Assembly (NCBI GenBank): GCA_021741145.1
Contig: JAIOYK010000002.1
Span: 100,170-164,169, forward strand
DNA from: Rhodospirillum sp.
GTDB lineage: Bacteria; Pseudomonadota; Alphaproteobacteria; Rhodospirillales; Rhodospirillaceae
DNA: 64,000 nucleotides
Direction: 5' to 3'
The notes below the pieces were generated by a model, which saw nothing but the letters and a program-made list of their open reading frames with translations, was not told where the DNA came from and did no database searches. A program made the translations under genes and the position numbers. This document shows positions 307 to 26,696 of this stretch, piece after piece. Numbering within the stretch: the stretch's first letter is position 1; every line of letters starts with the position of its first letter.

Positions 307-1458
<1,152 letters not shown>

Positions 1459-3713: not shown

Positions 3714-3745
3714 ACACTTAAGCGGTGGGGTTCTAATCTTTCGTC

Positions 3746-7030: not shown

Positions 7031-7063
7031 CAGCCCGCGATGAGTCACGCTCATCGCGGGCTG
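7031..7063. terminator. GC-rich hairpin directly after the stop of the KdsC-like gene
   Basis: CAGCCCGCGATGAG-n5-CTCATCGCGGGCTG forms a 14-bp stem and ends 4 nt from the TAA at 7067-7069. No clear U-tract follows on either strand, so it is terminator-like only. Confidence 0.4.
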
Positions 7064-7066
7064 GTA

Positions 7067-7606: not shown

Positions 7607-7613
7607 GGACCGA

Positions 7614-9167: not shown

Positions 9168-10157
9168 TCATCCCCCGTATAGGGCGAAGCGAAACCGTCG
9201 TCCCCAAAGGAGTTTTCCGAGCCCGCCGTGGAGGTTGGCCAGGTGTCCCGCGGCCCGATGTCCCCCCAGGGGGAGGGTCAGCAGCCAACCCAAGCCATGA
9301 ACCGCGACCTGGGCGGCTCCCACGGCCATCCACTTGAGAACTTCTCCTCCGTTGTGCCGCCCCAGGCGGGTACAGGCCAAGACCCGGATCTGGCCATCCC
9401 GAAAGCGGCGCTTGCGCAGGTAGGCGAGCGTGCAACGGTCCGCGGGGACGGACTCGGACACCAGGGCGTCCGCCGCCCAGGCCAGGCGCGCGCCCTGTGT
9501 CACCAGTCGACGCAACAGCACGCTGTCCTCGCCCCCCACCTTGCCCAGGTCGACGTCGAAAGGGAGGGAGGGGAGGGGGGCGGTTTCCCGGTCGAACAGG
9601 CTGTTCTGGGTTCCCATCGAAGCCACCAATGGGGTGATGTCCTCGCCGGTCTCGAGGCCCAGGACCCGGGAGAAATAGGCCATGAAGAGAGGCCGGAGCG
9701 GGTCGTCCTCGGCGCAGTGGAGGTTGGGGGTGACCGGTCCGAAGACCGCTCCGGCGCGACTGTCTCGCGCGGTCTTCCACAGGGCGGCGAGCCAGCCATG
9801 GATCGGGCATTGGTCATCGTCCAGGAACACCAGATAGCGCCCCCGGGCCATGGCCACCGCGGTATTGCGGGCATGGCTGATGCCTGGACGGGGCTCATGG
9901 AAGGCGTGGAGGATTGGCCCGGTCCACCCCTCCTTGACGGCGTCCAGGACGGGTCGGGCGGAGGCGTCCGGATCGTTGTCCACGACCAGGATTTCCACAT
10001 GGGTGAAATCCACATCCCTCTGTTCGGCGCAGGCCCGCAAGGCGCGGCGCAACAAGTCCGGGCGTTTGTAAGTGGGGATGAGGATGCTAACCTCGATCTC
10101 CGTGGGCGGAATCGCTCGAGGCGGAACGACCTTGGGTCCGTCGATGTGCGGTGTCAT
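9168..10157 (-). CDS. family 2 glycosyltransferase (GT-A fold)
   Basis: VSILIPTYKRPDLL, ILVVDNDPD, the FLDDDQ (DxD) motif, GGEDSVLL, and a hydrophobic C-terminal segment. The start is set to the ATG at 10157, which overlaps the upstream TGA (ATGA). Confidence 0.85.
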   Translation of the reverse strand: MTPHIDGPKVVPPRAIPPTEIEVSILIPTYKRPDLLRRALRACAEQRDVDFTHVEILVVDNDPDASARPVLDAVKEGWTGPILHAFHEPRPGISHARNTAVAMARGRYLVFLDDDQCPIHGWLAALWKTARDSRAGAVFGPVTPNLHCAEDDPLRPLFMAYFSRVLGLETGEDITPLVASMGTQNSLFDRETAPLPSLPFDVDLGKVGGEDSVLLRRLVTQGARLAWAADALVSESVPADRCTLAYLRKRRFRDGQIRVLACTRLGRHNGGEVLKWMAVGAAQVAVHGLGWLLTLPLGGHRAAGHLANLHGGLGKLLWGRRFRFALYGG

Positions 10158-11557
10158 TGGGGCGTGGAGTCCTCGCCAAGAATGCTGAACCATGTCTTCG
10201 CGACCTCCATGGCCGGTTTGCCCGCCACGTCGAAGTCATCGACATTCGGAATTTGGTCAACGCCCTTGTAAGGTTCCGGATCCCAGTCCCAAAAGAATAT
10301 TCCCTCCAGCCAGTCGGCCCGCACTTCGGTCATGGCGGTGAAGACGGCCTCGTAAAGCAGGGCCTGTTCGGCCAGATCGACGGTCACCTCCCGGGCGCTG
10401 TCCCCCAGGCCGGTGCCTCCCCCATCGATGGAGCGGTAGCCGATTTCCGTGAACAGGATTTTCTTGTCCTCATGGATCGACAAGCGGCGCATGGCCTCGG
10501 TGATGGGGAGGCCGCTCCAGACCTCGGCGGTGACGCTGTTGGTGGGATCCCGGTTCCATCCCGCTACCGCTTCCGCCAGAGTCGGGTCGTTGCCCTTGGT
10601 GATGGGGGCGTACATGTCCACGCCGATGTAGTCCAGGGCGTCCCAGAAGGGCACCTGCAATTCCTCTCCCCAGTTGGCCGAATAGGTCAGCTTGCCCGGG
10701 TAAACGGCCCGCACGGCGGCGATCACCTTCAACCAGCGGTCCCGGTTGGCGGGCCGGGTCAAACCCACCAACTCTCCGGTCAGGGACATCAACTCCACCC
10801 CTTCCTCCGCGGCCATGGTTGCGTAGTGGACCATCACCGTTTCGAAATCGGCGAAGAAGGTATCCAGTTCATCGGGTACAATGAGCTGGTGGGGGCCGAA
10901 ATCCTCCAGATGGACTTGGGGCTTGAGCATCACGATCAGACCGAGGTCCTTGGCCTTTCGGATCATCGTACGGACATTTTCGTCCGTTTCCGTCTGCTGG
11001 TTCCGGAAGATGCGGGAGGCGTGGATGTCCTTGATGTATTGGGTGGGCACTATGGCCACGGCGTTGGCATTGCTTTCGGCCAATTCCGTCAAGGCGGTGA
11101 TCGCCTTGTCTGAGCCGAAGATCCCCTTCCACCAGGATCCCATATTGAACCCCATGTATCGGGGCGCGAAAGGGCCGGGGGGGTTGGTCGTGCCAGGAAT
11201 GGGGGCGAGGCGGGCCAGATCCTTCTCGATGGTTTGGTGGGCCTCGTCCTTGTTGACCACCATGCCCCAGGTGATCTGGCCCCGGGCCGGAATGATCCCG
11301 GTCCCGGCCTCGGGCTGGACGCGAAGGGACCCGGGACGCGCGCCCTCGCTCACCATGGCGCCCCAGCTTCTCGAAACGGTCCATCCCTTGGGTAGGTAGA
11401 GGGTCAAGGACCAATTCGCGGCGCCGTCCTTGCCCGGCGCCGTGACGGTCACCTCGCCCCAATACCCATTGCCCCATTGCTCCTTCATCTCGAATTCGGC
11501 GAGGACTTGGGGGTTGGGTCCAAAGAGCGGAAGGGCGTCGAGGAGGGCCGCGTCCAT
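10154..11557 (-). CDS. putative glycanase: CBM2-like beta-sandwich plus TIM-barrel clan GH-A-like hydrolase
   Basis: The N-terminal WGNGYWGEVTVT...ANWSLTLYLPKGW...ITWGMVV is a carbohydrate-binding-module-like Trp pattern. The C-terminal part has NAVAIVP, VMLKPQVH and ILFTEIGYRS (candidate nucleophile Glu). The start is set at MDAALL (11557). No signal peptide is visible. Confidence 0.6.
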   Translation of the reverse strand: MDAALLDALPLFGPNPQVLAEFEMKEQWGNGYWGEVTVTAPGKDGAANWSLTLYLPKGWTVSRSWGAMVSEGARPGSLRVQPEAGTGIIPARGQITWGMVVNKDEAHQTIEKDLARLAPIPGTTNPPGPFAPRYMGFNMGSWWKGIFGSDKAITALTELAESNANAVAIVPTQYIKDIHASRIFRNQQTETDENVRTMIRKAKDLGLIVMLKPQVHLEDFGPHQLIVPDELDTFFADFETVMVHYATMAAEEGVELMSLTGELVGLTRPANRDRWLKVIAAVRAVYPGKLTYSANWGEELQVPFWDALDYIGVDMYAPITKGNDPTLAEAVAGWNRDPTNSVTAEVWSGLPITEAMRRLSIHEDKKILFTEIGYRSIDGGGTGLGDSAREVTVDLAEQALLYEAVFTAMTEVRADWLEGIFFWDWDPEPYKGVDQIPNVDDFDVAGKPAMEVAKTWFSILGEDSTPQ

Positions 11558-11725: not shown

Positions 11726-13837
11726 TCAGGTGCTGTCGCCCGCGCGGTTGAGCACCGCGCCCACCAGCCTGGAGCGCAGGCCACGCAGGACGCGCAGGGA
11801 TCCGGTGACCTGGGCCTGGCGGGTCCGGCCCGTGTCGAGCACCATCAGGATCTTGTCGCTGATCCCCGCCCAGGCGGTGGCGTCGGCGCTTTCCAAAAGA
11901 CCCGGGCTGTCGATCAACACGGCGTCGTATTTCTCGCGCAGGGCCTGAGCTAGTCCGCGCATCTGCAGGTCATGTAGGCGCATGGTCGCCCCCTGCATGG
12001 GACCCATGGGCAAGAGGTGAAGGGGCGAGGTGGGATCTTTCTGGATCGCCCGCTCCAAATCGGCGCCATCACGGACCATGTCCACCAGTCCGAAGTCATT
12101 GGCGCACCCCGTGGCCCGGTGCAGGGTGGGCGTCGTCCTGTCACCGTCGACCACGAGTGTCCGCAATCCGGCTTCCAGGGCCAGCGCGCGACCGATGGAG
12201 ACGGCCATGGTGGTCTTGCCCTCGCCGCTGTCCGGCGCGGTCACCAGGATGATCCCTGGCTTTTCCGAACTGTCCGGCGGCGCGAGGGAAAGGTGCAGGG
12301 CGCGGATGGAGTCGCTGAAGGGAGAGGTCGGCTTGTCGACGATATACAGCTGGGGAGGCAGGGCGGCCACTTGTTCCGCGGACAGGCGCGGTGTCAGGGT
12401 CAAGACCGGCGCGCGGAGCCAGGCCTCCGCCTGTTCCAGGGTCATCAGGCGGGTATCGGTCTGCTCCATCCACAGCACCAGGAGGAGGGCGACGAACAGC
12501 GCCGCCATGCCTCCTCCGGCGACGATCATTTTGCGCTTGGGCGCGGCCCGGACTTCCGGGGGGATGGCCGATGAGACCACCCTGCCGTCGGCCCGTTCCG
12601 TCCCCCGGACCTCCTGAACCTGGGCCAGCCGGTTCAGGAAATCCTCCAGGATGCGCCGCGCGGAATCCGCGTCCCGTTCCATGGCCCGCAGGTCCACCTG
12701 GGCGTCGCTTAGCTGTCTTTCCTCGCCCTTTAGGGTGGCCAAGGCGGCCTCCAGAGAGGAAACCCGCGCCTGGAGACTTTCCACGGAGAGCCGCAATTCG
12801 GCGCGGATGGAGCGGGTTTCGTTCCGCATCTGCTCCGTCAGGGCGCGGACCACGTCCTGGGCCGCCGTGATGGCCCGGTGGCCGGGTTGGTATCGGGCCA
12901 TGGCCGCGGCCAGATTGGCCATGGCCATGGCTTTCTGCTGACGCAGGGCGCCCATGATTTCCGTGTTGGCCGCGGCGGTGGGGATGTCGGCGTCGGCGCT
13001 GGAAAGAACCCGCTCGATTTCCGTGAACTGCGCCTTGATGGAGGCGAGGTCGGCCCGGGCCTCCGTCAGGCTTTGGTTCAGGGTGGCGATCTGGTCGCTG
13101 ACCGCTTGCAGACCGGCCCCTTCCACCAATCCTGCGCTGCTTCGGAAGGCAGCCACCTTCTCCTCCCGGGCCGTGACGTTCTTGCGCAATTCAGTGATGC
13201 GCTCCGACAGGGCCGCGATCAGGGTTTCGTTTTCCTGGATCTTTTCGTCCACCTGTCGTTCCAGGTAGGCATGGACCGCGGCATTGGCGATATCCGCGGC
13301 CTCTTGTGGGGTGGAGGCGGTGGCCGATACATCGATGATCTTGGACCGGCCAACGGGGGAGACAAAAAGGCCGCCCCGCAGATTTTCCGTCACCCGGGTC
13401 ATCATGGTTTCCCGCGTGGCGACACCGGTGGCCTTGGGGTCGGGCTTCCAGCCGAGTTCCGGGTTTAGTTTGGGGTCGTAGAGCAGTCCCATGTTTTCGA
13501 TAACCCGCTCGGTCACGGCACGGGAGCGGATGATCTGGGTTTCGCTTTCGAGAAGAATATCATTGCCGAAGGGGTTGCTGTCGCCGCCTCCCTGGTCCAG
13601 CAGGGTTCGCCCTTCGTCGCGGACCAGGACCGAGGCGATGGCGATGTATTTTGATGGCAGGGTCAAGGAATAGGCGGCGGAAGCGAGCACGCCCACCGTG
13701 ACGACGGCCAGGATGAGCCAGCGGTTACGGATCAGGGCCTGTAGGGCGGCCTTGATGTCGGTCATCAGATCGTGGCCGCCCGGACCCCCATGGGGGCCGT
13801 CCCCCATCGGGCCATAGCCCAGTTGGGTCGTGGACAT
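11726..13837 (-). CDS. polysaccharide co-polymerase with C-terminal BY-kinase-type P-loop ATPase (Wzc/GumC/ExoP-like, PCP-2a)
   Basis: TM helix WLILAVVTVGVLASAAYSL, a long coiled-coil periplasmic region and a second TM helix. The ATPase has Walker A VTAPDSGEGKTT, Walker A-prime LVVDGD and Walker B VLIDSPG. Only the C-terminal ~703 aa of the 1174-aa track ORF is used. The start is ambiguous among 13837, 13807 and 13765. Confidence 0.85.
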   Translation of the reverse strand: MSTTQLGYGPMGDGPHGGPGGHDLMTDIKAALQALIRNRWLILAVVTVGVLASAAYSLTLPSKYIAIASVLVRDEGRTLLDQGGGDSNPFGNDILLESETQIIRSRAVTERVIENMGLLYDPKLNPELGWKPDPKATGVATRETMMTRVTENLRGGLFVSPVGRSKIIDVSATASTPQEAADIANAAVHAYLERQVDEKIQENETLIAALSERITELRKNVTAREEKVAAFRSSAGLVEGAGLQAVSDQIATLNQSLTEARADLASIKAQFTEIERVLSSADADIPTAAANTEIMGALRQQKAMAMANLAAAMARYQPGHRAITAAQDVVRALTEQMRNETRSIRAELRLSVESLQARVSSLEAALATLKGEERQLSDAQVDLRAMERDADSARRILEDFLNRLAQVQEVRGTERADGRVVSSAIPPEVRAAPKRKMIVAGGGMAALFVALLLVLWMEQTDTRLMTLEQAEAWLRAPVLTLTPRLSAEQVAALPPQLYIVDKPTSPFSDSIRALHLSLAPPDSSEKPGIILVTAPDSGEGKTTMAVSIGRALALEAGLRTLVVDGDRTTPTLHRATGCANDFGLVDMVRDGADLERAIQKDPTSPLHLLPMGPMQGATMRLHDLQMRGLAQALREKYDAVLIDSPGLLESADATAWAGISDKILMVLDTGRTRQAQVTGSLRVLRGLRSRLVGAVLNRAGDST

Positions 13838-14203
13838 GGCCGAGGATTGGGATATGGCGGGTAAGGGAGAGATCACGACCGCGCGCTCCACGGCAAGTCG
13901 GTGGAACAACTGGTCTTGGGAGTCCAGATGGGGCGGCGATCGGCACGGTGCGTCGTCATGGATCCCGTTATTTCCCTGGAATTCTTTGGTACGCTTCCGA
14001 CATCTTAGCGTATGACGTCGCGGCATGCACGGCCAAGGATGGCTTTTCACCTTGCCATCCAATTGAGATAGCATGATTCTGTCGCCGGACAAATGGATCG
14101 ATACTCCCTTCCCCGTGGCCAAGGTGGCCCCTTCGTCAAGGCCTGGAGAGGGGGTGAATGTCAACGCTGACCCGGGGTTCCACCCCGCGGGAGTCTCCTG
14201 ACC

Positions 14204-15463
14204 ATGAACGCACCAGCGCGGGGATCGGATGATGGGCTGGAAGAGACCGGCGGGGCCAAAGGGCAGGCCTCGGCCAATGGGTCTCCCTCCAGAGGGGGCA
14301 TAACCGAGGATCGGATCCCCTACGCGCCGGAACACCCCACCGGGGACGGGGCCAAGGGGTCCGGCGCGGGCGCGCAACGGCGGCACGAACGGGTCACCGC
14401 CCCCCTGGATATCATTTTCCAGCGGAAGATCTATAAGGCCAAGGACTGGTCCATGACCGGTTTCGCCCTCGAGCCGGATGCGTTCGACCTGCCCGTGGGC
14501 CAGCGCTTCCGGTTCCACGCCCGTTTCCACCTGCGGGGCGCCCAGATGGCCGCCGAATTCCAGGCGGAAGTCGCCCGCCGTACCAGCGAGCGGACGGGAT
14601 GCCGGTTCGTTGAGACGACCCCCGACCAGATCCAGGTTCTGCGCATGCTGCTCGCCGCCTATCGATCGGGTCGGGTGCCCGCGTGGGAAGCCATGATGGC
14701 CATGGACGAGGACGGTCCTCTGAGGGGGGCCCCCCGCCGGGCCGTGACCCCCACGGGCGAGGATCGGTTCGAGGACGCCGACGCGGGCGAGCAGCGCGCC
14801 GGAGGGCGCCTGTCCTGGCGTCCCTCTGTTCGAATGATCTATGGAATCCTTGCCATCGTGGCGTTGGTGGCGGTCACCCTGGTCGGAATCACCCGCCTGT
14901 CCCATGACCTGGAAAGCGCCTTCGCCGCGGTGTCCCTGCCCGGGGGGCAAACCCTGGCCGCGGATCGGGAGGGCATCGTCGCCGAGGTTCTGGCCGCGCC
15001 CGGTGATCTCGTCGGCGCGCGGACCCTGGTCTTGCGGCTGACACCCACGGGCGCGGAAGCGAGTGACCCGGTACCGGTTCTGAGCCCCTGTGCCTGTTCG
15101 GTGCTTTCCCTGGCCGTTTCCCCCGGGGATAGGGTGGCGCTGGGGGATCCCCTGATGTCCCTGGGGCCGATCAATGGCGCCAAGGACGGCCTTTTCGTCG
15201 AAGCCCTGTTCCCCATGGAGGATCTGGAGGACCTGCCGTCTGGAACCCAATTGGAGGTACGGTTGGCTGGGACGAACCGTCTGGTCCCTGGTCGGGTGGT
15301 CACGCTCGAGGCGTCCCTCTCGGCCCTGCCCGCCGTCCTGGTGGAGCGGGGAGGGTTGGGGGTCGTGCAGGTGCGCCTAGACCAGGCGCCGGAGGGTTTA
15401 TACAACGGCCAGCCGGCCCGGGTCCGACTGCGCCGGTCGCCCCTGGTGCTCTTGGGGCTGTGA
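14204..15463 (+). CDS. Alg44-like protein: PilZ (c-di-GMP-binding) domain, one TM helix, periplasmic HlyD/membrane-fusion-like domain
   Basis: RRHER (aa 59-63) and DWSMTG (aa 81-86) fit the PilZ RxxxR...DxSxxG signature. The TM helix is MIYGILAIVALVAVTLVGITRL. Lipoyl-like halves GIVAEVLAAPGDLV and CSVLSLAVSPGDRVALGDPL are followed by a beta-barrel-like tail. Confidence 0.8.
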   Translation: MNAPARGSDDGLEETGGAKGQASANGSPSRGGITEDRIPYAPEHPTGDGAKGSGAGAQRRHERVTAPLDIIFQRKIYKAKDWSMTGFALEPDAFDLPVGQRFRFHARFHLRGAQMAAEFQAEVARRTSERTGCRFVETTPDQIQVLRMLLAAYRSGRVPAWEAMMAMDEDGPLRGAPRRAVTPTGEDRFEDADAGEQRAGGRLSWRPSVRMIYGILAIVALVAVTLVGITRLSHDLESAFAAVSLPGGQTLAADREGIVAEVLAAPGDLVGARTLVLRLTPTGAEASDPVPVLSPCACSVLSLAVSPGDRVALGDPLMSLGPINGAKDGLFVEALFPMEDLEDLPSGTQLEVRLAGTNRLVPGRVVTLEASLSALPAVLVERGGLGVVQVRLDQAPEGLYNGQPARVRLRRSPLVLLGL

Positions 15464-15582
15464 CCGTTTGGTCTTCGCGGCATCGTTCGCGAAATCGGTA
15501 TCCGCGGCCACGAGCGATGCTCCATCGCGTCCGAAGCCACACCGGGGAAAGGGAAGGGAATTTGGAAGCAGGATCCAGCGGC

Positions 15583-16362
15583 ATGGTGTCGGAGGTGGGA
15601 GAGCCAGGGGCGGGAGAACAGCAACGGCGGCGCTTCCTAGGTTTGGATTTTAATCCCTTGACACTGGACGAGGCCTTGGAGGTTTGCGTGGCCCGGGCGG
15701 GGGCCAAGGCGCCTTTCGTCTATGTGGTGACGCCCAACGCCGACCATGTCCAGCGCCTCCATCGTTCGGGGGAGGCCATTTGGGCCCTCTATCGGGGGGC
15801 ATGGCTTTGTCTGAATGACAGCAAGATCATTGGGCTACTGGCCCGCTTGCGGGGCTTAACCTTGCCCGCCGTGCCCGGATCCGATTTGACCGAGCAGTTG
15901 TTCATGCGCGGCCATGTGAAACCCGATGATCCGGTCACCCTGATTGGCGGGACGAAGGCCATCGCCGAAACCCTGCGGAGCCGCTTCGGCCTGACCCGCC
16001 TGACCCATCATGACCCGCCCATGGGCTTTATCAAGGATCCGGCGGAGGTGGAGACATGCGTGCGGTTGATCCTGGAGACCCCCGCCGCCTTCGTCTTCCT
16101 GGCCGTGGGTTCGCCCCGTCAGGAAATCGTGGCCGATGCCGTCACGCGGACCGGACAGGGAGAGGGTGTCGGGTTTTGCATTGGAGCCAGTTTTGAGTTC
16201 CTCACCGGGATAAAGGCCCGGGCACCCAAGTGGATGCGGGTGATGAGTTTGGAGTGGTTTCACCGTCTGCTCAGCGAACCTCGGCGCATGTGGCGACGCT
16301 ATCTGTTAGATTCACCGAGAATTTTTCTGGTTTTCCTGAAGACGGAAATCCTCGGGAAGTAG
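15583..16362 (+). CDS. WecG/TagA/CpsF-family glycosyltransferase (GT26)
   Basis: YVVTPNADHV, VPGSDL, FVFLAVGSPRQE, CIGASFEFLTGIKARAPKWM and LEWFHRLLSEPRRMWRRYL are the typical GT26 blocks. The start is set at the ATG at 15583. Confidence 0.85.
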   Translation: MVSEVGEPGAGEQQRRRFLGLDFNPLTLDEALEVCVARAGAKAPFVYVVTPNADHVQRLHRSGEAIWALYRGAWLCLNDSKIIGLLARLRGLTLPAVPGSDLTEQLFMRGHVKPDDPVTLIGGTKAIAETLRSRFGLTRLTHHDPPMGFIKDPAEVETCVRLILETPAAFVFLAVGSPRQEIVADAVTRTGQGEGVGFCIGASFEFLTGIKARAPKWMRVMSLEWFHRLLSEPRRMWRRYLLDSPRIFLVFLKTEILGK

Positions 16363-16441
16363 GGCGCCATTTCCGTATCGAGGCTGAGTGCGGGATGCCC
16401 ACGTCGGCCTTAGCTTTGATGGAGACATCCGTGGCGCGGCG

Positions 16442-17992
16442 TCACTGTGTCTTGGCGCCTTGGCTTTCCATGGCTTCCAAGCTTTGCTTGGCCAGGGGAT
16501 GCCCATTGGCGGCGGCGACGTTGAGCCAATGGAGGGCCTGCTCTTTGTCCGGCATAACCCCAATTCCTTTGAGGTACATGACCCCTAGATTGTTCTGGGC
16601 GCTGACGAATCCCTTGCGCGCGGCCCGTTCGGTCAGTTGGAACGCCCGTTGGGGGTCGCGGGGAACGCCCTGTCCAGCGGCGTAGAGAACCGCGAGGTTG
16701 TACAGGGCCAGGGGATCGTCTTTCTCGGCCAGGGGTTCGAGAAGTTGGGCGGCCAGAGTGAAATTCCCGGCCTGAGCCGCCGCGGTGGCCGCGGTCATGG
16801 GATCCCGATTGGCCGGGGTCGCGGGCGGGTTCACCCTTGCGGGCGGCGGTGCGGTGGCGGGGGCTGTCGCGGGCGCGGGTGCCGGATCCACCCTGACCGC
16901 GGGGGGAGCCGTCACGACAGGGAGAGGCGCGGGAGCCGGTTCCAGCGCGGCTGCCGGACGAGGAGACGGCGGGGCCGCCTGGGCCTCGGGCGACGGTCCT
17001 GGTTCGGGTCTTTTATCCATGGTCGGGGGAATGCTCAATTCCTGACGGGTCAGGGACCCCGTTTCCCGATCCTTGGTCGCGGCGGCTTGCTCCGGTTCGG
17101 TCCGATCCGTTTCCGGGGAAGGCCGGATGGTTTTGGTCGCCGAGGGACCTTCGAATAGCGTCGCCGCGGTGGAGGGAAGGAACTCCTTCGGCGACCGGGA
17201 TTCAAGGACAGGTGCTCCCTCCGGTACGGGGGAGACCGTCGCGGTGTCGGAGGGTGGGGACACCGAGGCGGGCGCTGGAGGTGGTTCCGGATCCACCGCT
17301 TTGGCGGGCGTGGTGCTGGCGACGGGTGCTTCTGGCGCGCTCACCGGCTCGGCGGGGGGGGCTGGCGCGTTGAGGGGACGGTATCCCGTGGGGGGGACCG
17401 TCCGGTTCAAGGGGGATTGCCACGTCGTCCGGTCCGATGCCTTCAAGGCGGACGCCGCGGCCCTTTGGGTGGGGTCGGTCACCGAAGTCGGCGCCGTCCC
17501 GTTGTCTCGCGGGGCGACGACGGGGGGTGGGGACGGGCTCGGAGGCCGCGGCGCGGTCGATGCCCCTGCTCCGGTCGAGGTCATGCCGATGGGATGGACC
17601 ATGTTCGCGCAAGCCATGGGAACGACCGCGCAGGTCAGGCCAGCGGTGCCGGCGGCGGCGCAGAAGGCATGGGCCTGGGATGTGCTTTCCGCGGGAAGCA
17701 GGATCCGCCGTGTCTGGCCTTCGGTACAGTCGAGGGCCATCTGGCCGGGTGCCTTGAGGGAAAAGGCCCGCCACGCATTCAGCTGCGCGGATTCCGAGGG
17801 GAAGGGACCCAGTTGGGCCGCTGGTGTCGATCCGTCGGTCCGATTCTGGGCAAGGGCAACCCCCGCGGAGGTCACACAAGTCCCGACGCTCAGGCTCAAG
17901 GCCAACCGCAAGGCCAGTCCCAAGGCAAGCCGGGGACCAATCAAGGCGATCTGCTTGGAAACCTCAAGCACCGTTTTGCCTGAACAACTCAT
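16442..17992 (-). CDS. secreted Sel1-like-repeat protein with long Pro/Ala/Ser-rich linker
   Basis: The N-terminal hydrophobic signal-like segment is LALGLALRLALSLSVG. About 250-300 aa of PAP/PPA-rich low complexity follow. The C-terminal Sel1 repeats are LALYNLAVLYAAGQGVPRDPQRAFQLTERAARKGFVSAQNNLGVMYLKGIGVMPDKEQALHWLNVAAANGH. Confidence 0.75.
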   Translation of the reverse strand: MSCSGKTVLEVSKQIALIGPRLALGLALRLALSLSVGTCVTSAGVALAQNRTDGSTPAAQLGPFPSESAQLNAWRAFSLKAPGQMALDCTEGQTRRILLPAESTSQAHAFCAAAGTAGLTCAVVPMACANMVHPIGMTSTGAGASTAPRPPSPSPPPVVAPRDNGTAPTSVTDPTQRAAASALKASDRTTWQSPLNRTVPPTGYRPLNAPAPPAEPVSAPEAPVASTTPAKAVDPEPPPAPASVSPPSDTATVSPVPEGAPVLESRSPKEFLPSTAATLFEGPSATKTIRPSPETDRTEPEQAAATKDRETGSLTRQELSIPPTMDKRPEPGPSPEAQAAPPSPRPAAALEPAPAPLPVVTAPPAVRVDPAPAPATAPATAPPPARVNPPATPANRDPMTAATAAAQAGNFTLAAQLLEPLAEKDDPLALYNLAVLYAAGQGVPRDPQRAFQLTERAARKGFVSAQNNLGVMYLKGIGVMPDKEQALHWLNVAAANGHPLAKQSLEAMESQGAKTQ

Positions 17993-19097
17993 AGGAGAAC
18001 GATCCCGAGAAGCCTTGGAAAAAGAGGATTTGGCGCAGCACCTGATCCATCAGGCGACCGGCCTGGGCCAGCTTGGAGGGCGGCACGTAGACGATGGCGT
18101 TGTCCGGCAGGGTGATGTCCTCCTCCAACGCCAGATTGGTCAGAACATTGGACAGGTTGACCCGTCGGAGATGGGGCTGACCCTGGTCGTCCACGTAGAG
18201 TACCCGCACATTGGTCAGGTTGCCCGTCGTTTCGATGCCTCCGGCCCGGGCGATGCTCATCAAAACGGTTTGGGGACGGTTGGTTTCCACCATGCCAGGG
18301 TTCCGGACCTCGCCGAACACGAAAAGGCGGTCGCCGCCGGTCTGCTTGGGCAGGATGCTGACGTCGATGTTCAGACCCGATCTGGCGTAGGCGGTGCTCA
18401 CCTCCTCCGTCAGCTTGTCCAAGGTCTTGTCCGTGGCTTGGATGGGCGACAAGTAGGGGAGCGCCAACATACCGTCGGAGGTGACGGGGACGACCTTTGC
18501 CCGGCCCTGGGTGATGGATTCAATGTCTTGGATAAACCGATCCTCGGGCAGGATCCAGCCTTCCAGGGATACGGACGGGTTACTATTCTGGAAAACCTCG
18601 CCGTACTTGGCGCGAACCGCGGCGTTCAGGGAGCGAACGTCCCGGCCCGCGGCCATCACTTCGCCCGTTTCCGGCAGGCTGATCCACCCGTCCGGGCGGA
18701 CTTTCGCCGTGGTATTCAAGGCGGTATCGCCGGGGAAAGTGATCGCGACCTGATCCCCCACCTGCAGGTCATAGGTCTTCACCGTGGTGGGACGGGCGTG
18801 GAACAGGACTTCCAACTGGTCGCCGATGCGCGGCGTGTATTGGGCGCGGCCCCGTTGGAGACTCTTGACCAGGGTTTGGCGCATGACCTCCTTTTCCGCA
18901 TCGGAGAATTCGGAGATATAGACGGGATCCTCTCCGGTTGTCTGGTCAAAGGTTGGGCCACCACAGGCCGATAACAGCACCATCAACCCCAGCAGGCCAA
19001 ACAGCACAAGGCCAAGACCGAGTCGGTCATTTCGCGACCGGTTGTTTCGTGGAGACCGCTTTCCTTCGTCCCCAATCAAACGTCTCAAGGTCCGCAT
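17964..19097 (-). CDS. outer-membrane polysaccharide export lipoprotein (Wza/GumB/ExoF family)
   Basis: Lipobox LLSAC after a hydrophobic signal. Poly_export-like PRIGDQLEVLF..., repeated SLBB-like segments (VFGEVRNPG, VRVLY) and a hydrophobic C-terminus. The start is trimmed to MRTLRRL at 19097. Confidence 0.85.
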   Translation of the reverse strand: MRTLRRLIGDEGKRSPRNNRSRNDRLGLGLVLFGLLGLMVLLSACGGPTFDQTTGEDPVYISEFSDAEKEVMRQTLVKSLQRGRAQYTPRIGDQLEVLFHARPTTVKTYDLQVGDQVAITFPGDTALNTTAKVRPDGWISLPETGEVMAAGRDVRSLNAAVRAKYGEVFQNSNPSVSLEGWILPEDRFIQDIESITQGRAKVVPVTSDGMLALPYLSPIQATDKTLDKLTEEVSTAYARSGLNIDVSILPKQTGGDRLFVFGEVRNPGMVETNRPQTVLMSIARAGGIETTGNLTNVRVLYVDDQGQPHLRRVNLSNVLTNLALEEDITLPDNAIVYVPPSKLAQAGRLMDQVLRQILFFQGFSGSFSYELFRQNGA

Positions 19098-19242
19098 GCT
19101 TCCTCGGTTTTTCGCGGCGATGTGGTCGGGGCTGTCATCTCCTCGCGTCGCGTCACGCTTTCGTGTAGGTATCGTAAGGTATGGGGATTCGCGAAAAACA
19201 CAACCGTTACCAAGACGTGACTCTCCCTTTGGAGCAAATGGG

Positions 19243-20619
19243 ATGACCGGTCGTGGGGTGCTGGGCCGACTGCGCGACCTTATGGGGGACGGCGCGTCGG
19301 ACCGGCGGTATTTGTTGGGTAAGGGAGGACTGGACCTGTCCGCCAGGGTTCTCGGCGTGGTCCTTGTTCTCGGCTGGTCGATCATGCTGACCCGCATCAT
19401 GGGACCCACGGACTATGGCCGATATGTCTATGTCATGTCGGCGGTCTTCTTCTCCTCCCTGGTGGGGGGGCTTGGGATGCCGGTGGCGACGTCCTATTAT
19501 ATCCAGCGATATATCCGCACGCGGGGGTGGCGTATGGCGGGCTACCTCTGGACCGCCTTTTCCATCACCATTCTTGGGCCGAGCCTGACGACACTGGGCG
19601 TGTGGGCGGCGGTGCGCCTGTACGGTGGAACCATGTTTGATGGGTTCACCCTGGTTGGTGTGTTGGTGTTTGGCGTCGGTACGGCCGCGGTGACTCTGCT
19701 GACCTACGCCAATCGGGCTTTGGAGGAATCCACCTTCAGCGCCTTTTGCGAACAGGTCTGGCAAAAGATCGCCAGTTTTATTTTTATCGCGGGCGTCTTC
19801 CTGGTGGGGGCTTCCCTTTCACCGGAGGTCGCGCTGGCGGCATCCACCTTTGGGGCTTGGCTTGCCGCCCTTCCCCTTTTGCGGGTGGTCTGGCGCAAGG
19901 CCATGGCCGGGCGCCCCAGCGCGACCTCTCGACAGGTGAAGCGCCTGCTTCCCCTGTGGATGCGTCGGTCGATGATCATGATGATCACACCGCTCTATTT
20001 CATTGTCCTCTCTGAAACGGATGTATTGATGCTGGGGGCCATCACCACCCCGGCCATGGTCGCCATCTACCATGTGGCCCGTCGGGTGGCGATCTTGGTT
20101 CGATTCGTCCAGATCGCCGTGGTGGGCGTGGGCATGCACCGCTTTGCCGCGGCCCATATGGACCAGGATGGCAAACGGTTGCAGGACCTGCTGGATTCCA
20201 TGACCCTGATCGCATTGGTGCCCGCGCTGATCGGATGGGTGAGCTTCCTGGTGCTCGGCCCCTTCCTGTTGAGCCTGTTCGGCCCGGAAATGAAGGCCGG
20301 ATATGTCGCCTTGATGCTGCTTGCCACCGCGGGCGTCTATGACATCGCCATGGGACCGTCCACGGAGCTTTTAATGATGACCGGTCAGGAAAAGATCGTT
20401 GGCATGGTCAATATTGGTGCCGGAGTGTTGAATATCCTGGCCAATTTTCTGCTGATCCCGTCCCTCCAATTTGAGGGCGCGGCCCTCGCCACCCTGCTTT
20501 GTGTGCTTCTGTGGAAGGGAAGCTTGGCCTGGGTGGCTTGGCGTCGCCTGGGTGTCATTACGCCCGTCTTGTTGCGCCTTCCCATCCTGTTGAGCCAGTT
20601 TCGCGCGGCGAGGGGGTAA
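19243..20619 (+). CDS. Wzx-type polysaccharide flippase (MOP superfamily)
   Basis: 458 aa with about 12 predicted hydrophobic helices. The N-terminus has the LLGKGGLDLSARVLGVVL...MGPTDYG pattern typical of polysaccharide biosynthesis (PST) proteins. The start at 19243 has GGAG 9 nt upstream. Confidence 0.8.
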   Translation: MTGRGVLGRLRDLMGDGASDRRYLLGKGGLDLSARVLGVVLVLGWSIMLTRIMGPTDYGRYVYVMSAVFFSSLVGGLGMPVATSYYIQRYIRTRGWRMAGYLWTAFSITILGPSLTTLGVWAAVRLYGGTMFDGFTLVGVLVFGVGTAAVTLLTYANRALEESTFSAFCEQVWQKIASFIFIAGVFLVGASLSPEVALAASTFGAWLAALPLLRVVWRKAMAGRPSATSRQVKRLLPLWMRRSMIMMITPLYFIVLSETDVLMLGAITTPAMVAIYHVARRVAILVRFVQIAVVGVGMHRFAAAHMDQDGKRLQDLLDSMTLIALVPALIGWVSFLVLGPFLLSLFGPEMKAGYVALMLLATAGVYDIAMGPSTELLMMTGQEKIVGMVNIGAGVLNILANFLLIPSLQFEGAALATLLCVLLWKGSLAWVAWRRLGVITPVLLRLPILLSQFRAARG

Positions 20620-20622
20620 GCC

Positions 20623-22011
20623 ATGGGGACGGCTTGGCAAGGCAATGGTTTGGGGCGGGGGGAAACCGAAAGAGAGTTTGCCCCCCGGCGGCGGGGCATT
20701 GGACGGGTCGACCCCCTCCGTCTTCTGGCCGATGCCACGCTTGTCCTGGGGCTTGCCTATACCATCTGCGGCGCCATGCCCTTCAGTGGGGGCCTTGGCG
20801 GGGACCAATCCCAGGGGAATGCGTTGCTCCGGCTGATTCCCATCAGTCTTTTCGCCATGGCGGTTCCTCTCCTGATCGTCCGCTGGCCCTTGGTGCGGGT
20901 GATGCTGACGCGGAATTGGGTGATGGTGGTCACGCTTGGTTGGTTGGTCCTATCCATCGGGTGGTCCGACCTGCCCGGTTTGAGTGTGCGCCGTGTCGGC
21001 TTTCTGATCGTCGGCTATTTGACGGCGTTGGGCGTGGCGGCCTGGGCCGACGACATCGAGCGGACGACCAAGATCATGGCGGCTCTTTTGACCATTGTCG
21101 TTCTCATCGACTTGGCCTCGGTTCCCCTGGTGCCTCACCTGGCCATGAGCGACGAAGGGGCTCGGGGCATGCATTCACAAAAAAACCAAGCCGGCGCGGT
21201 CTGTTTGCTGGCCATCATTGCTCTTTCCTTTTGTCTGCCCTCCATGCGTCGCCTTTTCGGGGTGGCCATGGTGGTCGGTCCGATGGTGCTGACCGTGGTC
21301 TTCCTGGTCCTGACCCGATCCAAAACCTCGATGGCCTTGGTGGGGCTTTACATGGTGTTTCTCCTGCCCCTTTGCGCCGGTTTGGCTTGGGAGCGGGGGA
21401 AGGGGGTCGTTCTGGTACTTTTCGCCGGGGTCGTGGTGTCCCTGTTTGTCCTGACCATTGGTGTCGAGGGCTGGACTCTGCCCGACGTGCTGACGCTGAT
21501 TTTCGGGGATCCGACCTTCACGGGGCGGACCGATATCTGGGATTTTGCCTTCGACCAGATCGCCCAAAGGCCCGTCTTCGGAACCGGTTATGGCGCCTTC
21601 TGGGATGCGGGAGAGGCCCATGACTACCTTCGGCATGCCAATAACTGGTTGCGTTTCACACCCGTGGGCGTCATCAACCAAACCCACAATGGCTATATTG
21701 ATCTGTGGGTCCAGGCGGGGCTTCCCGCCATGGTTGGGGGAGTCATGGTGATGGTCCGCCCCCTTGTGCTGGCGGGTCTCGGTTTGGCCCGGGACAGTTG
21801 GGGCCGCGCTCAGTGGATCGGCTATGCTCAGCTTTTCTGCCTGATGATGCTGTTTCTGGTCTACAACCTCATGGAAAGCGCCGTGCTCAGCCGGGTACAC
21901 TTTTTCGGGTATATTATTTTCCTCTATGCGCTTTTCGCGGAGCGGTGGACCATGCCCGATATCGCCCTTTCGCGGCGGGCCCCTTCTCCGGGCTGGGGAG
22001 AGACCGGATGA
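20623..22011 (+). CDS. O-antigen ligase/polymerase-family membrane protein (Wzy_C-like), probable repeat-unit polymerase
   Basis: Polytopic membrane protein with MHSQKNQAG...LTRSKTSM and a large loop containing FGTGYGAFWDAG...THNGYIDLWVQAGL. This is the typical Wzy_C arrangement. The gene starts 3 nt after the wzx stop. Confidence 0.75.
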   Translation: MGTAWQGNGLGRGETEREFAPRRRGIGRVDPLRLLADATLVLGLAYTICGAMPFSGGLGGDQSQGNALLRLIPISLFAMAVPLLIVRWPLVRVMLTRNWVMVVTLGWLVLSIGWSDLPGLSVRRVGFLIVGYLTALGVAAWADDIERTTKIMAALLTIVVLIDLASVPLVPHLAMSDEGARGMHSQKNQAGAVCLLAIIALSFCLPSMRRLFGVAMVVGPMVLTVVFLVLTRSKTSMALVGLYMVFLLPLCAGLAWERGKGVVLVLFAGVVVSLFVLTIGVEGWTLPDVLTLIFGDPTFTGRTDIWDFAFDQIAQRPVFGTGYGAFWDAGEAHDYLRHANNWLRFTPVGVINQTHNGYIDLWVQAGLPAMVGGVMVMVRPLVLAGLGLARDSWGRAQWIGYAQLFCLMMLFLVYNLMESAVLSRVHFFGYIIFLYALFAERWTMPDIALSRRAPSPGWGETG

Positions 22012-22460
22012 TCCCGCGTCCCCTGATGCGCCATCCACTGCCCCAATGGTTGATCCGTCTTGTCGCTGGCGCGCTGATGCTGGTCGCCCTGGTGGGCTCG
22101 CTTTCGCCGGGGTTGGGCCCATCGAATGCCTACGGCATCGACAAGATGGTTCATGTTCTTGGTTACGCGGTCCTGGCCTTTTCCCTGGGGGAAGTCCGGG
22201 GCATACGCTGGCCTCTGGCGCTGACCTTGGCCATCACCATGGGCGGTTTGACGGAAGGGCTGCAGACCGCGGTCCCGGAGCGGAGTGGGTCCTGGGCGGA
22301 TTTCTTCGCGGGTGGACTGGGCGCCATTCTGGGGTTGGCCGGTCGGGCCGCCCTGTCCCACGCTCGGACCCAAGCCCGGAACGTCGCCGAGACCAAGGGT
22401 GTCTTGCCAGCGGGTGGGGCACCCGATCCGGTGCCCCACGATTCAGGAATGCAACCATGA
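22008..22460 (+). CDS. VanZ-like membrane protein
   Basis: 150 aa with four hydrophobic segments and DKMVHVLGYAVLAFSL...EGLQ...R..SWADFFAGGLGAILG, a VanZ-like pattern. The ATG overlaps the wzy stop (ATGA at 22008-22011). Confidence 0.7.
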   Translation: MIPRPLMRHPLPQWLIRLVAGALMLVALVGSLSPGLGPSNAYGIDKMVHVLGYAVLAFSLGEVRGIRWPLALTLAITMGGLTEGLQTAVPERSGSWADFFAGGLGAILGLAGRAALSHARTQARNVAETKGVLPAGGAPDPVPHDSGMQP

Positions 22461-23443
22461 CCTTCGCCCGGCCCGATCTGTCCGTTCTGGTTTGCACCTA
22501 TGACCGCACCGATCCCCTGAAGACCTGTCTGACCCATGTGCGGGACCAACGCGCCGTGGACGGCGGCCCGCTGGGCCTCGCCCTGGAGGTGATCGTCGTT
22601 GACAATGGACCGCTGGGCCATTCCCAGGCCATCGTCGAGGCGGTCTTCGCCGAAAGCGCCATCCCCGCCCGGCGGGTCGCCACCGCGCCGCCCAATATTT
22701 CCATCGCGCGGAATCGATGCCTGGCCGAGGCCCGGGCACCCCTGGTCCTGTTCCTGGACGATGACCAGAATTTGGCGCCCGATGCCATCGCCCAGGCCTT
22801 GGCGGTATTGGACGAGACCGGCGCGGACATCGTTCTAGGGCGGGTCAAGGCCGTGGACTTGGCGGGAACGCCCATCTCCAACCCTCTGCTCGGTGACATC
22901 TTCGGCCGCCGGTCGGCCCTGCCCCGGGGCGCGGCCTTGGCCGTCTACAGACCCCGTCGAACCCCTGGATTCACGCCTGGCACGGGCTTGAGTCTCTGGC
23001 GCGTGTCCCCTTGGCTGGAAGGCGCGGAACCCTTCGATCCTGCCTTTGGCGCCTGCGGCGGCGAGGATCTGGACCTGCTTATGCGCGTCGAGGCGGCGGG
23101 GGCTAAAATCCACTGGGCACCGGACTCCGTTGCCCTGGAAGGGGTGCCCGGAGATCGCATGACCGAACGCTATCTGATCACACGGGCTTATAGCGGCGCC
23201 CAGGTCTATGCCGCCGTCGCGGTGAAGAATACGCCGGAAACTCCGGGCCTCGCCCGGATCCTGGCGGTGAAGGGAGCGATCCAGGCCGCGGTCTGGGGAT
23301 CGCTGGCCCTGCTTCTGACCGTCGGTCCCAAGGGGCCTCGCCTGAAGGCCCGGGTGAAGGTGGCGTTGGCGCTGGGCAAACTGTTCTGGCGGAAACGGAT
23401 CCCGCTCTATCAGATGACCTTCGACGGGGAGAGCAAGGCATGA
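22457..23443 (+). CDS. family 2 glycosyltransferase (paralog of 9168-10157)
   Basis: LSVLVCTYDRTD, VIVVDNGP, ISIARNRCL, FLDDDQ (DxD) and GGEDLDLLMR, with a hydrophobic C-terminal segment. An ATGA overlap with vanZ lies at 22457-22460. Confidence 0.85.
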   Translation: MTFARPDLSVLVCTYDRTDPLKTCLTHVRDQRAVDGGPLGLALEVIVVDNGPLGHSQAIVEAVFAESAIPARRVATAPPNISIARNRCLAEARAPLVLFLDDDQNLAPDAIAQALAVLDETGADIVLGRVKAVDLAGTPISNPLLGDIFGRRSALPRGAALAVYRPRRTPGFTPGTGLSLWRVSPWLEGAEPFDPAFGACGGEDLDLLMRVEAAGAKIHWAPDSVALEGVPGDRMTERYLITRAYSGAQVYAAVAVKNTPETPGLARILAVKGAIQAAVWGSLALLLTVGPKGPRLKARVKVALALGKLFWRKRIPLYQMTFDGESKA

Positions 23444-25702: not shown

Positions 25703-26644
25703 TTAGGTCCCTTGAGTCAGGCGGACCGCGTCCTGCTCGATGGCCCGGGCCTGGAGGGCATCAAGCAGGGCGTTGCGGACTGTAACGTCCAAATGTTCGT
25801 AGGACTGGATGGAAACGGCCACCTTGTCGGGGCTCAGGGCTTCGACGAAGGCCGCCCGACCCGCGTCGGTATGGACATCGCCGTACCAACTGCTGTGGTG
25901 CAACAGCGCGTCCGTGGGGGTTTGATCATCGACGCCCCCCAAGGCATTGGTCACATAAACCCCATATAGGGTGTATTCGGACAGGGTGGTGCTGGCGGCC
26001 AGGGCTTTCCACCAGGGTTTGCCGGTGACCGTTTCGACGCGGTCCATGGTGCCTTGGGCATGGCTCCGCCGCCAAGTGATCAAATCATTGATATAGTTAT
26101 CCCCCCAGAAGGGATCCGTCGACGGGAGGTCAAGGAGTTTCGCGGTCTTTTCGTACCACTTTTGATGGGATGGCAAGTCGCCGCAGACGGCTTTTTCGTA
26201 ATAGAGCCGCAGACGCCCGTCGGGTGTCTTGAAGCTGTCTTCGTTCACGGGACGGATGAACATGACATCACTGTCCACGAAGGCGATGGAGTCCGTTGGC
26301 GCCGCGATGGCCGCCCCAAACTTGACCAATTGTTGAAGGATCCAACCCCGCACGGGTATCCAGAGTCCGGGGTGGATGAACAGATCCTGGCGGGCCCGCA
26401 AGGGGTTGAGCCAAGTCGGAACCCTATGGAAGCGGGCGGGGATCACGTCTTCGGTCGAGGCCAATAGGGTTCGCGCGTGACAGGCCGTCCGGAAGAGCTC
26501 GATGTCGTCCGGAGGGACAATCACCATATGGAGAACCCCCGGACCCGCGTGGCGCTCCACGCTTTTGGAGAGGCGTTCGAAGAGGGGGAAGTCACCGCGA
26601 TAGGACGGGGTGATCAGGGTGAGAGTCATGGATTGGTCGATCAT
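25703..26644 (-). CDS. hypothetical protein with GT-A-like features
   Basis: LTLITPSYRGD resembles the first beta-strand of GT-A enzymes, and IAFVDSDVMF is a DxD-like motif. No TM segment is visible. The start is set at 26644 (MIDQS), downstream of the stop at 26697. I could not assign a family by eye. Confidence 0.55.
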   Translation of the reverse strand: MIDQSMTLTLITPSYRGDFPLFERLSKSVERHAGPGVLHMVIVPPDDIELFRTACHARTLLASTEDVIPARFHRVPTWLNPLRARQDLFIHPGLWIPVRGWILQQLVKFGAAIAAPTDSIAFVDSDVMFIRPVNEDSFKTPDGRLRLYYEKAVCGDLPSHQKWYEKTAKLLDLPSTDPFWGDNYINDLITWRRSHAQGTMDRVETVTGKPWWKALAASTTLSEYTLYGVYVTNALGGVDDQTPTDALLHHSSWYGDVHTDAGRAAFVEALSPDKVAVSIQSYEHLDVTVRNALLDALQARAIEQDAVRLTQGT

Positions 26645-26696
26645 CGGGGGTGTTCCAAATGGCCGTGGACCCACGATTCGGGTTCGGTTGGGGGCG

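Follow-up and report, generated by a model that had tools for sequence, protein, structure and literature searches.

Introduction

Direct post-translational control by cyclic di-GMP (c-di-GMP) is regarded as a hallmark of synthase-dependent polysaccharide systems, namely those for cellulose, alginate, Pel and poly-N-acetylglucosamine, and Alg44 requires c-di-GMP to activate alginate polymerisation (PMC8461298). That 2021 review of c-di-GMP control of exopolysaccharides nowhere mentions Wzx or Wzy, and a 2025 paper sets the well-understood c-di-GMP control of synthase systems against the poorly understood regulation of Wzx/Wzy systems. Here we analyse a stretch of 64,000 nucleotides from Rhodospirillum sp. 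(assembly GCA_021741145.1, contig JAIOYK010000002.1, positions 100,170 to 164,169; hereafter the window), in which the open reading frame (ORF) 14204-15463 encodes a protein joining a PilZ domain to a membrane-fusion-protein-like domain (PilZ-MFP) within a Wzx/Wzy-type exopolysaccharide (EPS) cluster. We give about even chances to the reading that this gene encodes an Alg44-type c-di-GMP receptor that a Wzx/Wzy-dependent EPS machine has taken over from synthase-dependent systems. The original prediction, made from the sequence of the window, knew of no described example of such a hybrid; likewise, the literature that we searched yielded no account of a PilZ-MFP from a Wzx/Wzy cluster.

A PilZ-MFP protein of Alg44-type architecture

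The gene at the centre of the analysis is the following:

14204..15463, plus strand: PilZ-MFP with Alg44-type architecture, 419 aa (Pfam, PDB, AlphaFold2, Foldseek)

Both domains of the product score above their Pfam cut-offs, PilZ (PF07238) with 33.3 bits over residues 58-151 (cut-off 22.5) and HlyD_3 (PF13437) with 37.3 bits over residues 292-371 (cut-off 22.2), and the PilZ signature is present as R59xxxR63 and D81-W-S-M-T-G86 (D81xSxxG86). Hydropathy reveals a sole hydrophobic segment at residues 206-236. An AlphaFold2 (AF2) model, computed from an alignment of nine homologues, has a mean predicted local distance difference test score (pLDDT) of 72, with values of 80-93 in the PilZ domain and 76-92 in the periplasmic part, and presents a PilZ barrel, a long helix (residues 209-232) and a periplasmic region (240-409) of beta structure throughout, in which no coiled coil or alpha-hairpin was seen. 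The protein can hence be laid out as a disordered N-terminus (1-57), the PilZ domain (58-157), a linker, a transmembrane helix (~209-232) and a periplasmic barrel-sandwich/beta-barrel domain (~240-410) bearing an invariant SPCxC motif (C296, C298).

Comparison with known structures led to the same assignment. The top PDB match by sequence is the Alg44 PilZ domain, with a PilZ identity of ~25%, and Foldseek aligns the N-terminal part of the model with the Alg44 PilZ domain (4xrn/4rt0) at TM-scores of 0.77-0.82 and a root-mean-square deviation of 2.5-3.1 Å. The periplasmic part most closely resembles, in fold, the hairpin-less membrane-fusion protein (MFP) BesA (E 3e-8). The EmrA model reaches only 22 bits against a cut-off of 391, and in the long members of the family (P0094, P0114, P0015 and others) a search for fusions to partner domains detected only PilZ and HlyD domains. 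Together, these results support an Alg44-type architecture, and they bear out what the original prediction had read from this ORF: the PilZ signature, one transmembrane helix and an MFP-like periplasmic domain without a long coiled coil, with the profile search for PilZ and HlyD-type domains that it had proposed returning both.

The residues expected to contact the nucleotide are well conserved. R59, R63, S83, G86 and R130, and likewise the periplasmic C296 and C298, are unchanged in nine homologues, down to 33% identity, and both RxxxR and DxSxxG are kept in 137 of 151 representatives of the PilZ-MFP family. In Alg44, R95 is required for binding dimeric c-di-GMP. In the PDB sequence alignment, R130 of the window protein aligns with the arginine mutated in 4rt1 (Alg44 R95A). 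This conservation bears on the alternative that the PilZ domain has lost c-di-GMP binding and the protein serves export only as a structural part in the periplasm, which we consider very improbable. Non-binding PilZ domains do exist (10.1101/814665), and PilZ matches are weak to moderate in several homologues, but the binding-motif residues, R130 included, are invariant across the clade, and PilZ domains within fusion proteins retain both their motifs and c-di-GMP binding (Galperin & Chou, 10.1101/814665). A promoter and terminator scan of positions 13600-16600, which surround the gene, returned nothing exceeding shuffled expectation.

The gene lies in a complete Wzx/Wzy-type cluster

ORF and Pfam analysis shows that window positions ~300-28300 form one large polysaccharide cluster, whose genes other than that of the PilZ-MFP are listed here:

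left end of the cluster: GDP-mannose dehydratase, NeuB and methyltransferases (Pfam)
9168..10157, minus strand: ExoM-type family 2 glycosyltransferase (GT2), 329 aa (Pfam Glycos_transf_2, Glyco_tranf_2_3)
10154..11557, minus strand: family 2 carbohydrate-binding module (CBM2) plus family 113 glycoside hydrolase (GH113) (Pfam GH113 161 bits, CBM_2 29 bits)
11726..13838, minus strand, start at 13838 or 13765: Wzc-like polysaccharide co-polymerase (PCP) of the PCP-2a type (Pfam Wzz, GNVR, AAA_31, CbiA)
15460..16362, plus strand: family 26 glycosyltransferase (GT26; WecG/TagA/CpsF), directly 3' of the PilZ-MFP gene (Pfam Glyco_tran_WecG 126.6 bits)
16442..17992, minus strand: secreted Sel1-repeat protein (Pfam Sel1 76.6 bits, in two stretches)
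17964..19097, minus strand: Wza-type outer-membrane polysaccharide export (OPX) lipoprotein with lipobox LLSAC (Pfam Poly_export 73.8 bits, SLBB_2 37.1 bits)
19240..20619, plus strand, ORF opening at 19042: Wzx flippase with multiple transmembrane segments (Pfam Polysacc_synt 37.6 bits)
20623..22011, plus strand: Wzy polymerase of the Wzy_C/O-antigen-ligase family with ~10 or more transmembrane segments (Wzy_C 66 bits)
22008..22460, plus strand: VanZ-like small membrane protein
22457..23443, plus strand: second ExoM-type GT2, a paralogue of the GT2 at 9168-10157 (Pfam)
23440..25620, plus strand: fusion of an NAD-dependent epimerase/dehydratase with a GFO/IDH/MocA oxidoreductase (Pfam)
25703..26716, minus strand: DUF6492 protein
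26697..28310, minus strand: priming phosphoglycosyltransferase (PGT) of the WbaP type (Bac_transf 216.5 bits, CoA_binding_3 90.2 bits)

The PGT, Wzx, Wzy, PCP and OPX proteins are thus encoded together, all above Pfam cut-offs, and constitute a complete Wzx/Wzy set, as originally proposed. The divergent pairing of the PilZ-MFP gene (plus strand) with the Wzc-like gene (minus strand) was likewise upheld by Pfam. The original prediction had further placed a GT26, a Sel1 protein and a Wza protein downstream of the PilZ-MFP, followed by a divergent wzx-wzy operon; all of these genes are present beyond it, but the Sel1 and wza genes run on the opposite strand, convergent with the GT26 gene, and wza comes first, lying 5' of the Sel1 gene with a 29-nt overlap. 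The GT26 gene likely has its true start near 15583, and the nearest NCBIfam equivalog of its product is EPS_EpsA, with a score far under the cut-off.

The Wzx/Wzy context recurs among relatives

Among 1.84 billion representative proteins, a profile search identified 459 PilZ-MFP relatives, 7 of them at E <= 1e-30, and all close relatives with readable context reside in a similar kind of cluster. In total, a PilZ-MFP occurs with Wzx/Wzy-type genes in ~10 loci from Rhodospirillaceae genomes and metagenome contigs (designated here with the prefix L). The arrangement of the window, with GT2, GH113 and PCP genes divergent from PilZ-MFP and GT26 genes, followed by Sel1/OPX and Wzx/Wzy genes, is kept in L001, L002, L004, L007 and L016, which belong to Rhodospirillum sp. 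A1_3_36, Rhodospirillaceae bacterium Z3-40, one Rhodospirillaceae metagenome-assembled genome and two metagenome contigs. The fused epimerase/oxidoreductase gene (23440-25620) is also found in L001, L002, L004, L007 and L008.

More divergent loci retain the same kinds of genes in other orders. In L008, where the homologue is 33% identical, the same gene set is rearranged, with Wzx on one side of the PilZ-MFP and a short OPX, PGT, Wzy, PCP, GT26 and GT2 on the other. A sister clade comprises P0012, P0019, P0038 and P0074; in two of its loci (L017 and L018) the PilZ-MFP gene is flanked by Wzy and followed by a PCP gene whose 723-aa product shares 27% identity with the window PCP over its full length, and in a third (L019) the GT26 gene adjoins the PilZ-MFP gene upstream. 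Overall, GT26 adjoins PilZ-MFP in 8 loci, downstream in 7 and upstream in L019. The survey of co-occurrence with wzc and wza genes that the original prediction had suggested therefore yields ~10 loci of varied gene order, one of which, L005, has no wza, wzx or wzy in the 10-kb flanks.

Outside these two clades, the family presents different partners. The gene for a protein of the outgroup 547-aa branch (P0010) has as neighbours those for an 876-aa GT2 synthase and a TolC-like outer-membrane efflux protein (OEP), and a member of the outgroup 348-aa branch lies inside an operon of the AlgD-Alg8-Alg44-AlgG-AlgL-AlgK-AlgX type. Because outgroup PilZ-MFPs sit with a GT2 synthase or in an alginate-like operon, the Wzx/Wzy context is specific to the clade, and its having outlasted rearrangement is the main argument that the context is functional.

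The periplasmic SPCxC motif is common to both Wzx/Wzy-linked clades and invariant in them. It stands where the lipoyl/barrel-sandwich domains of MFPs usually have "P-x-d-G", and its candidate roles include a disulfide, a metal site or some other function.

The linked co-polymerases lack the tyrosine cluster

The window PCP has a Wzz and GNVR periplasmic domain between two transmembrane helices (55-82 and 456-479) and a C-terminal P-loop ATPase domain with the motifs GEGKT (Walker A), VVDGD and LIDSP, and it scores under the cut-offs of both the NCBIfam eps_transp_fam and Wzc models. Its chain stops 6 aa past a VLNR motif, with 0 tyrosines in the last 60 aa. The same holds for its counterparts: all nine PCPs encoded beside these PilZ-MFPs lack a C-terminal tyrosine cluster, a feature reported here as new. 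Each of the nine chains ends 3-9 residues past a VLNR-type motif without a tyrosine-rich tail, the last 60 aa contain no tyrosine in eight and a single one in L017, and Walker A (GEGKT/S) is intact in 8/9. Among homologues of the bacterial tyrosine kinase domain from elsewhere, proteins of the Wzc/CapB type carry YY-rich tails; this control set was gathered with a word-indexed search using the PCP ATPase domain, which returned only distant matches (~30% identity), too remote to delimit the PCP subfamily. A motif search for a low-molecular-weight, Wzb-type tyrosine phosphatase (CxGNxCRS) found none in any frame of the window, PHP-type phosphatases not being covered by that motif.

Lacking the tyrosine cluster, the linked PCPs cannot use the classical tyrosine-cluster cycle, and the loss of the tail fits regulation by another input, which could be c-di-GMP acting through the PilZ-MFP. 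The Wzc-like PCP is most likely the direct partner of the PilZ-MFP, as judged from gene content and sequence, since it is the only protein encoded near the PilZ-MFP in every sufficiently flanked locus and since it has lost its tyrosine tail. Under the mechanism that we propose, at high c-di-GMP the nucleotide would be bound by the cytoplasmic PilZ domain, and the signal would be relayed either by way of the transmembrane helix and periplasmic domain or by contacting the PCP at its cytoplasmic ATPase domain. The polymerisation and export complex (PCP-Wzy-OPX) would thereby be switched on, so that EPS output would be set post-translationally by c-di-GMP instead of by the classical Wzc tyrosine phosphorylation cycle. 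This proposed gating of polymerisation and export draws on motifs and gene neighbourhood. In cellulose secretion, which offers an analogy for PilZ docking, the BcsA PilZ domain is surrounded by a BcsQ/BcsE vestibule. A more specific version, tentative and in our view somewhat doubtful, is that c-di-GMP replaces tyrosine phosphorylation as the on/off switch, with a c-di-GMP-loaded, dimerising PilZ domain docking on the P-loop ring and the MFP domain joining the PCP/OPX conduit, which would make the machine a hybrid of synthase and Wzy systems.

Several observations weigh against this reading as a whole or in part. In L005 (Roseospira visakhapatnamensis), the core of GT2, GH113, PCP, PilZ-MFP and GT26 is present but wza, wzx and wzy are all missing from the surrounding 10 kb, so that gene neighbourhood does not tie the PilZ-MFP obligatorily to Wza, Wzx and Wzy. 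The sample is small, at ~10 loci and 5 GTDB species, and several of the loci are closely related. Stand-alone PCP-like ATPases of myxobacteria, for which no link to PilZ is known, also lack a tyrosine tail. The PilZ score of the window protein is modest, at 33 bits, and its whole-chain model has a predicted TM-score (pTM) of 0.37 that does not fix the orientation of the domains. Finally, GT26 is adjacent to the PilZ-MFP as often as the PCP is, and neighbourhood cannot separate a PCP partner from a GT26 or GT2 one.

This last point leads to the main alternative, that the PilZ-MFP controls a glycosyltransferase step by activating or recruiting the co-transcribed GT26 or the membrane-associated ExoM-type GT2, with c-di-GMP gating repeat-unit assembly in the way that Alg44 activates Alg8. 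The GT26 step is the committed second one on undecaprenyl diphosphate. The position of GT26, next to the PilZ-MFP gene on one side or the other in 8 loci, speaks for such control, and the divergent core of GT2, GH113 and PCP with PilZ-MFP and GT26 persists in L005 without Wza, Wzx and Wzy in the neighbourhood. The ancestral partners of PilZ-MFPs are moreover GT2 enzymes, the local GT2 has three C-terminal helices like those of the membrane-bound PcManGT, and in P0192 an ExoM-type GT2 and a GT26 are naturally fused. However, a periplasmic MFP domain of ~170 aa with a conserved SPCxC motif has no obvious role in the control of a cytoplasmic glycosyltransferase. In L008, moreover, the PilZ-MFP gene is set apart from GT26 and GT2, between wzx and the OPX gene, and in L017 it is a PCP gene that follows the PilZ-MFP, with no GT26 or GT2 on the 8.5-kb contig. 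On balance, we regard control of a glycosyltransferase step as unlikely, and retain the PCP as the favoured partner.

No synthase found near the PilZ-MFP

Pfam detected no multi-transmembrane GT2 synthase of the Alg8, BcsA or PgaC type among the window ORFs of >=250 aa, shorter ORFs not having been scanned systematically, in line with the original prediction that the 64 kb encode no Alg8/BcsA-type processive synthase. No such synthase was found within 10 kb of the homologues in L001, L004, L005, L007 and L008 either, a flank search made partly on contigs of 0.24-1 Mb. The sole GT2 genes of the window are the two ~330-aa ExoM-type paralogues, which share DDD, GGED and RxxF..GQ motifs in alignment.

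The GT2 at 9168-10157 was assessed as a hidden minimal synthase, and this possibility was ruled out by the ExoM size of its homologues, the lack of a transmembrane segment and its non-processive fold neighbours. The homologues measure 300-350 aa, and their JGI name is often ExoM. No transmembrane segment is detected at a Kyte-Doolittle value of >= 1.6, and the AF2 model (pLDDT 93.7) consists of a GT-A domain and three C-terminal helices. The best Foldseek matches are TarP, AvpGT, TarS and the membrane-bound mannosyltransferase PcManGT, and BcsA (TMt 0.25) and hyaluronan synthase match through the GT-A domain only. Size, hydropathy, model and nearest folds thus identify this protein as a repeat-unit transferase and not a channel-forming synthase.

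Two observations concern relatives of this GT2. The metagenomic protein P0192 (597 aa, 22 member sequences) consists of an ExoM-type GT2 naturally fused to a GT26; it joins the two kinds of transferase found on either side of the PilZ-MFP core, and agrees with the reading of the ExoM-type GT2 as a repeat-unit transferase. In Pararhodospirillum oryzae, the GT2 homologue is an orphan gene that is not in any such cluster.

These searches also bear on the alternative that the PilZ-MFP acts as a conventional co-polymerase for a GT2 synthase encoded elsewhere in the genome, its position among Wzx/Wzy genes being incidental or reflecting shared regulation. Every characterised PilZ-MFP, that is Alg44, works with a synthase (PMC8461298), the outgroup relatives are synthase-linked, and the range searched was the 64-kb window and 10-kb flanks and not whole genomes. 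Against this, the association with PCP, Wzy and GT26 spans at least three gene orders down to 29% identity, which would not be expected by chance, and no synthase appeared in the scans of the window or within 10 kb on the contigs of 0.24-1 Mb. We therefore judge a distant synthase very unlikely, and continue to favour an Alg44-type protein operating within the Wzx/Wzy machine.

The Sel1 protein and the GH113 glycanase

The Sel1 protein (516 aa) comprises a signal-like N-terminus, a conserved Cys-containing domain of ~75 aa, a Pro/Ala-rich linker of ~280 residues and two C-terminal Sel1 repeats at ~428-498. Against the AlgK equivalog NF038194 it scores 25 bits (cut-off 700), similar to its scores against MerG, MotX and ExoR, and in the PDB it matches generic Sel1 proteins at E 3e-39 and AlgK (7ula) at E 6e-4 over 97 aa. 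No convincing canonical lipobox was found on inspection of the protein, and no Alginate_exp match, indicative of an AlgE-type barrel, was found in the window. The overlap of its gene with wza implies translational coupling, which is present in L001 too. The label "AlgK-like" given by the original prediction was consequently rejected: the protein has two repeats, an equivalog score far below the cut-off and no good lipobox, and it is coupled to wza and not to an AlgE-type barrel. It may act as a periplasmic accessory of the OPX protein, in a role analogous to that of AlgK but outside the AlgK family.

In L016, the protein encoded at the equivalent position combines Sel1 repeats with a Pfam SPOR domain. 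Assignment of the N-terminal domain of the window protein as SPOR was unsupported (BLAST E 0.28, with no Pfam match at E <= 10).

The CBM2-GH113 protein and its six orthologues (L001, L002, L004, L005, L007 and L016) begin with MD(A/P)ALxxALPxF..., and no signal peptide or hydrophobic segment was found in any of the seven. Rhizobial EPS glycanases are exported by the PrsDE type I system. The PilZ-MFP, as a homologue of MFPs, could by analogy be a c-di-GMP-controlled secretion adaptor for the GH113 glycanase, whose gene belongs to the conserved core and whose product carries a carbohydrate-binding module despite the missing signal peptide. The cluster, however, has no gene for an ABC, RND or MFS transporter or for a TolC-type protein, the MFP domain has no TolC-contacting alpha-hairpin, and the glycanase has no RTX-type C-terminal region, its Pfam GH113 domain reaching to within 20 aa of the end. 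L008 and L017, in addition, carry a PilZ-MFP and no GH113. Taken together, these results make a secretion adaptor exceedingly improbable, and a role for the PilZ-MFP in polymer production remains the favoured one.

Distribution and other genes

In a scan of GTDB with one genome per species, the close PilZ-MFP clade was found in 5 species only, all of them Rhodospirillaceae. The PilZ-MFP of the window has a 100% identical counterpart in a Rhodospirillum sp. metagenome-assembled genome. A clade-B-seeded metagenome scan returned one locus, L023, with similarity confined to the PilZ domain and no EPS genes.

Several genes of the polysaccharide cluster vary in their conservation. The VanZ-like (22008-22460) and DUF6492 (25703-26716) genes recur in the orthologous clusters L002, L004 and L007. 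Genes at the left end (307-8693) encode a GDP-mannose 4,6-dehydratase, a NeuB-family synthase, a fusion of a cytidylyltransferase with a methyltransferase and several products without Pfam match, a sign that the polymer may contain a deoxy or nonulosonic-acid sugar; they are missing from the orthologous loci that were read.

The related loci also present local differences. The OPX protein of L008 (4055-4690) has only 211 aa, with Poly_export and one SLBB domain, and is of the "short OPX" kind; a 2022 study describes short OPX proteins as paired with a separate beta-barrel (PMC9601211). Two otherwise syntenic clusters harbour mobile or selfish elements: in L016 (9943-11469), wza and wzx are separated by an IS605 OrfB/TnpB-type gene, and in L004 (13574-14096) a BrnT-toxin pair lies between the glycosyltransferase genes and the Sel1 gene. 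In L004 (Rhodospirillaceae bacterium Z3-40), a bacteriophytochrome HWE histidine kinase (PAS_2-GAF-PHY) with a receiver domain (2620-5214) adjoins the EPS cluster, which hints at light-dependent control there.

Elsewhere in the window, a second glycan-related set occupies 43105-55283 on the plus strand, with genes for an NTP-transferase, a UDP-glucose dehydrogenase and two phosphogluco/mannomutases. The set further includes a second Wzy_C gene (48999-50339) and genes for an LPG_synthase_TM-domain protein of 764 aa (50371-52665) and for a product of 856 aa without Pfam match (52713-55283). A MipZ gene, which marks the window as alphaproteobacterial, is located at 39551-40360, and the minus strand at 61935-63950 encodes a 671-aa protein with cyclic-nucleotide-binding, NTE-type P-loop-like and patatin phospholipase domains. 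A motif scan of the window found no GGDEF motif, and two EAL-like strings that are apparently incidental.

Discussion

If the proposed reading is true, this locus would provide a concrete case of second-messenger gating of the most widespread class of polysaccharide pathway, as well as a second, simpler context in which to learn the role of the Alg44-like periplasmic domain. The finding, made by sequence analysis, crosses an accepted boundary between pathway classes, and its narrow distribution limits its reach. Since Roseospira visakhapatnamensis JA131, Rhodospirillum sp. A1_3_36 and Rhodospirillaceae bacterium Z3-40 are named carriers, the claim can be tested in the laboratory.

Among known systems, the window protein resembles Alg44, the alginate co-polymerase of Pseudomonas and Azotobacter, in its PilZ domain with RxxxR, DxSxxG and an R95-type arginine, its one transmembrane helix and its hairpin-less periplasmic MFP domain. 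It differs in that the window holds no Alg8 and no algD, G, X, L, I or E, with PGT, Wzx, Wzy, PCP and OPX neighbours in their place, in the clade-specific invariant SPCxC, and in that alginate-like operons hold a different, 348-aa branch of the family. BgsB-type MFPs (bgsBA, mixed-linkage glucan; PMC13438883) are likewise MFP homologues dedicated to polysaccharide production, but these go with a GT2 synthase and a TolC-like protein, whereas the window protein lacks a hairpin and is encoded near neither a synthase nor an OEP gene. The MFPs of tripartite efflux and type I secretion systems differ from it similarly, the cluster having no transporter or OEP gene and the protein no hairpin.

The remainder of the cluster follows the classical Wzc/Wza/Wzx/Wzy pathway of the E. 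coli group 1 capsule and colanic acid in its full set of PGT, Wzx, Wzy, PCP-2a-like P-loop protein and OPX lipoprotein, but departs from it in a PCP without tyrosine cluster, in the failure to find a Wzb-type motif and in the addition of a PilZ-MFP and a protein with two Sel1 repeats. The latter is, like AlgK, the TPR/Sel1-like lipoprotein scaffold of AlgE, predicted to be exported and encoded with an outer-membrane export component, yet AlgK has ~10 repeats and an AlgE barrel as partner, as opposed to two repeats and an OPX protein here.

Effectors of c-di-GMP are also known from the Caulobacter holdfast, where HfsJ, a cytoplasmic glycosyltransferase, fulfils this role. Although HfsK (PMC5362036) is a cytoplasmic, acyltransferase-family enzyme, unrelated in sequence to the window protein and not a PilZ-transmembrane-periplasmic adaptor, the holdfast belongs to a wzy-type pathway (PMC6372794), and HfsK thus offers a precedent for c-di-GMP acting post-translationally on a polysaccharide pathway of the Wzy type.

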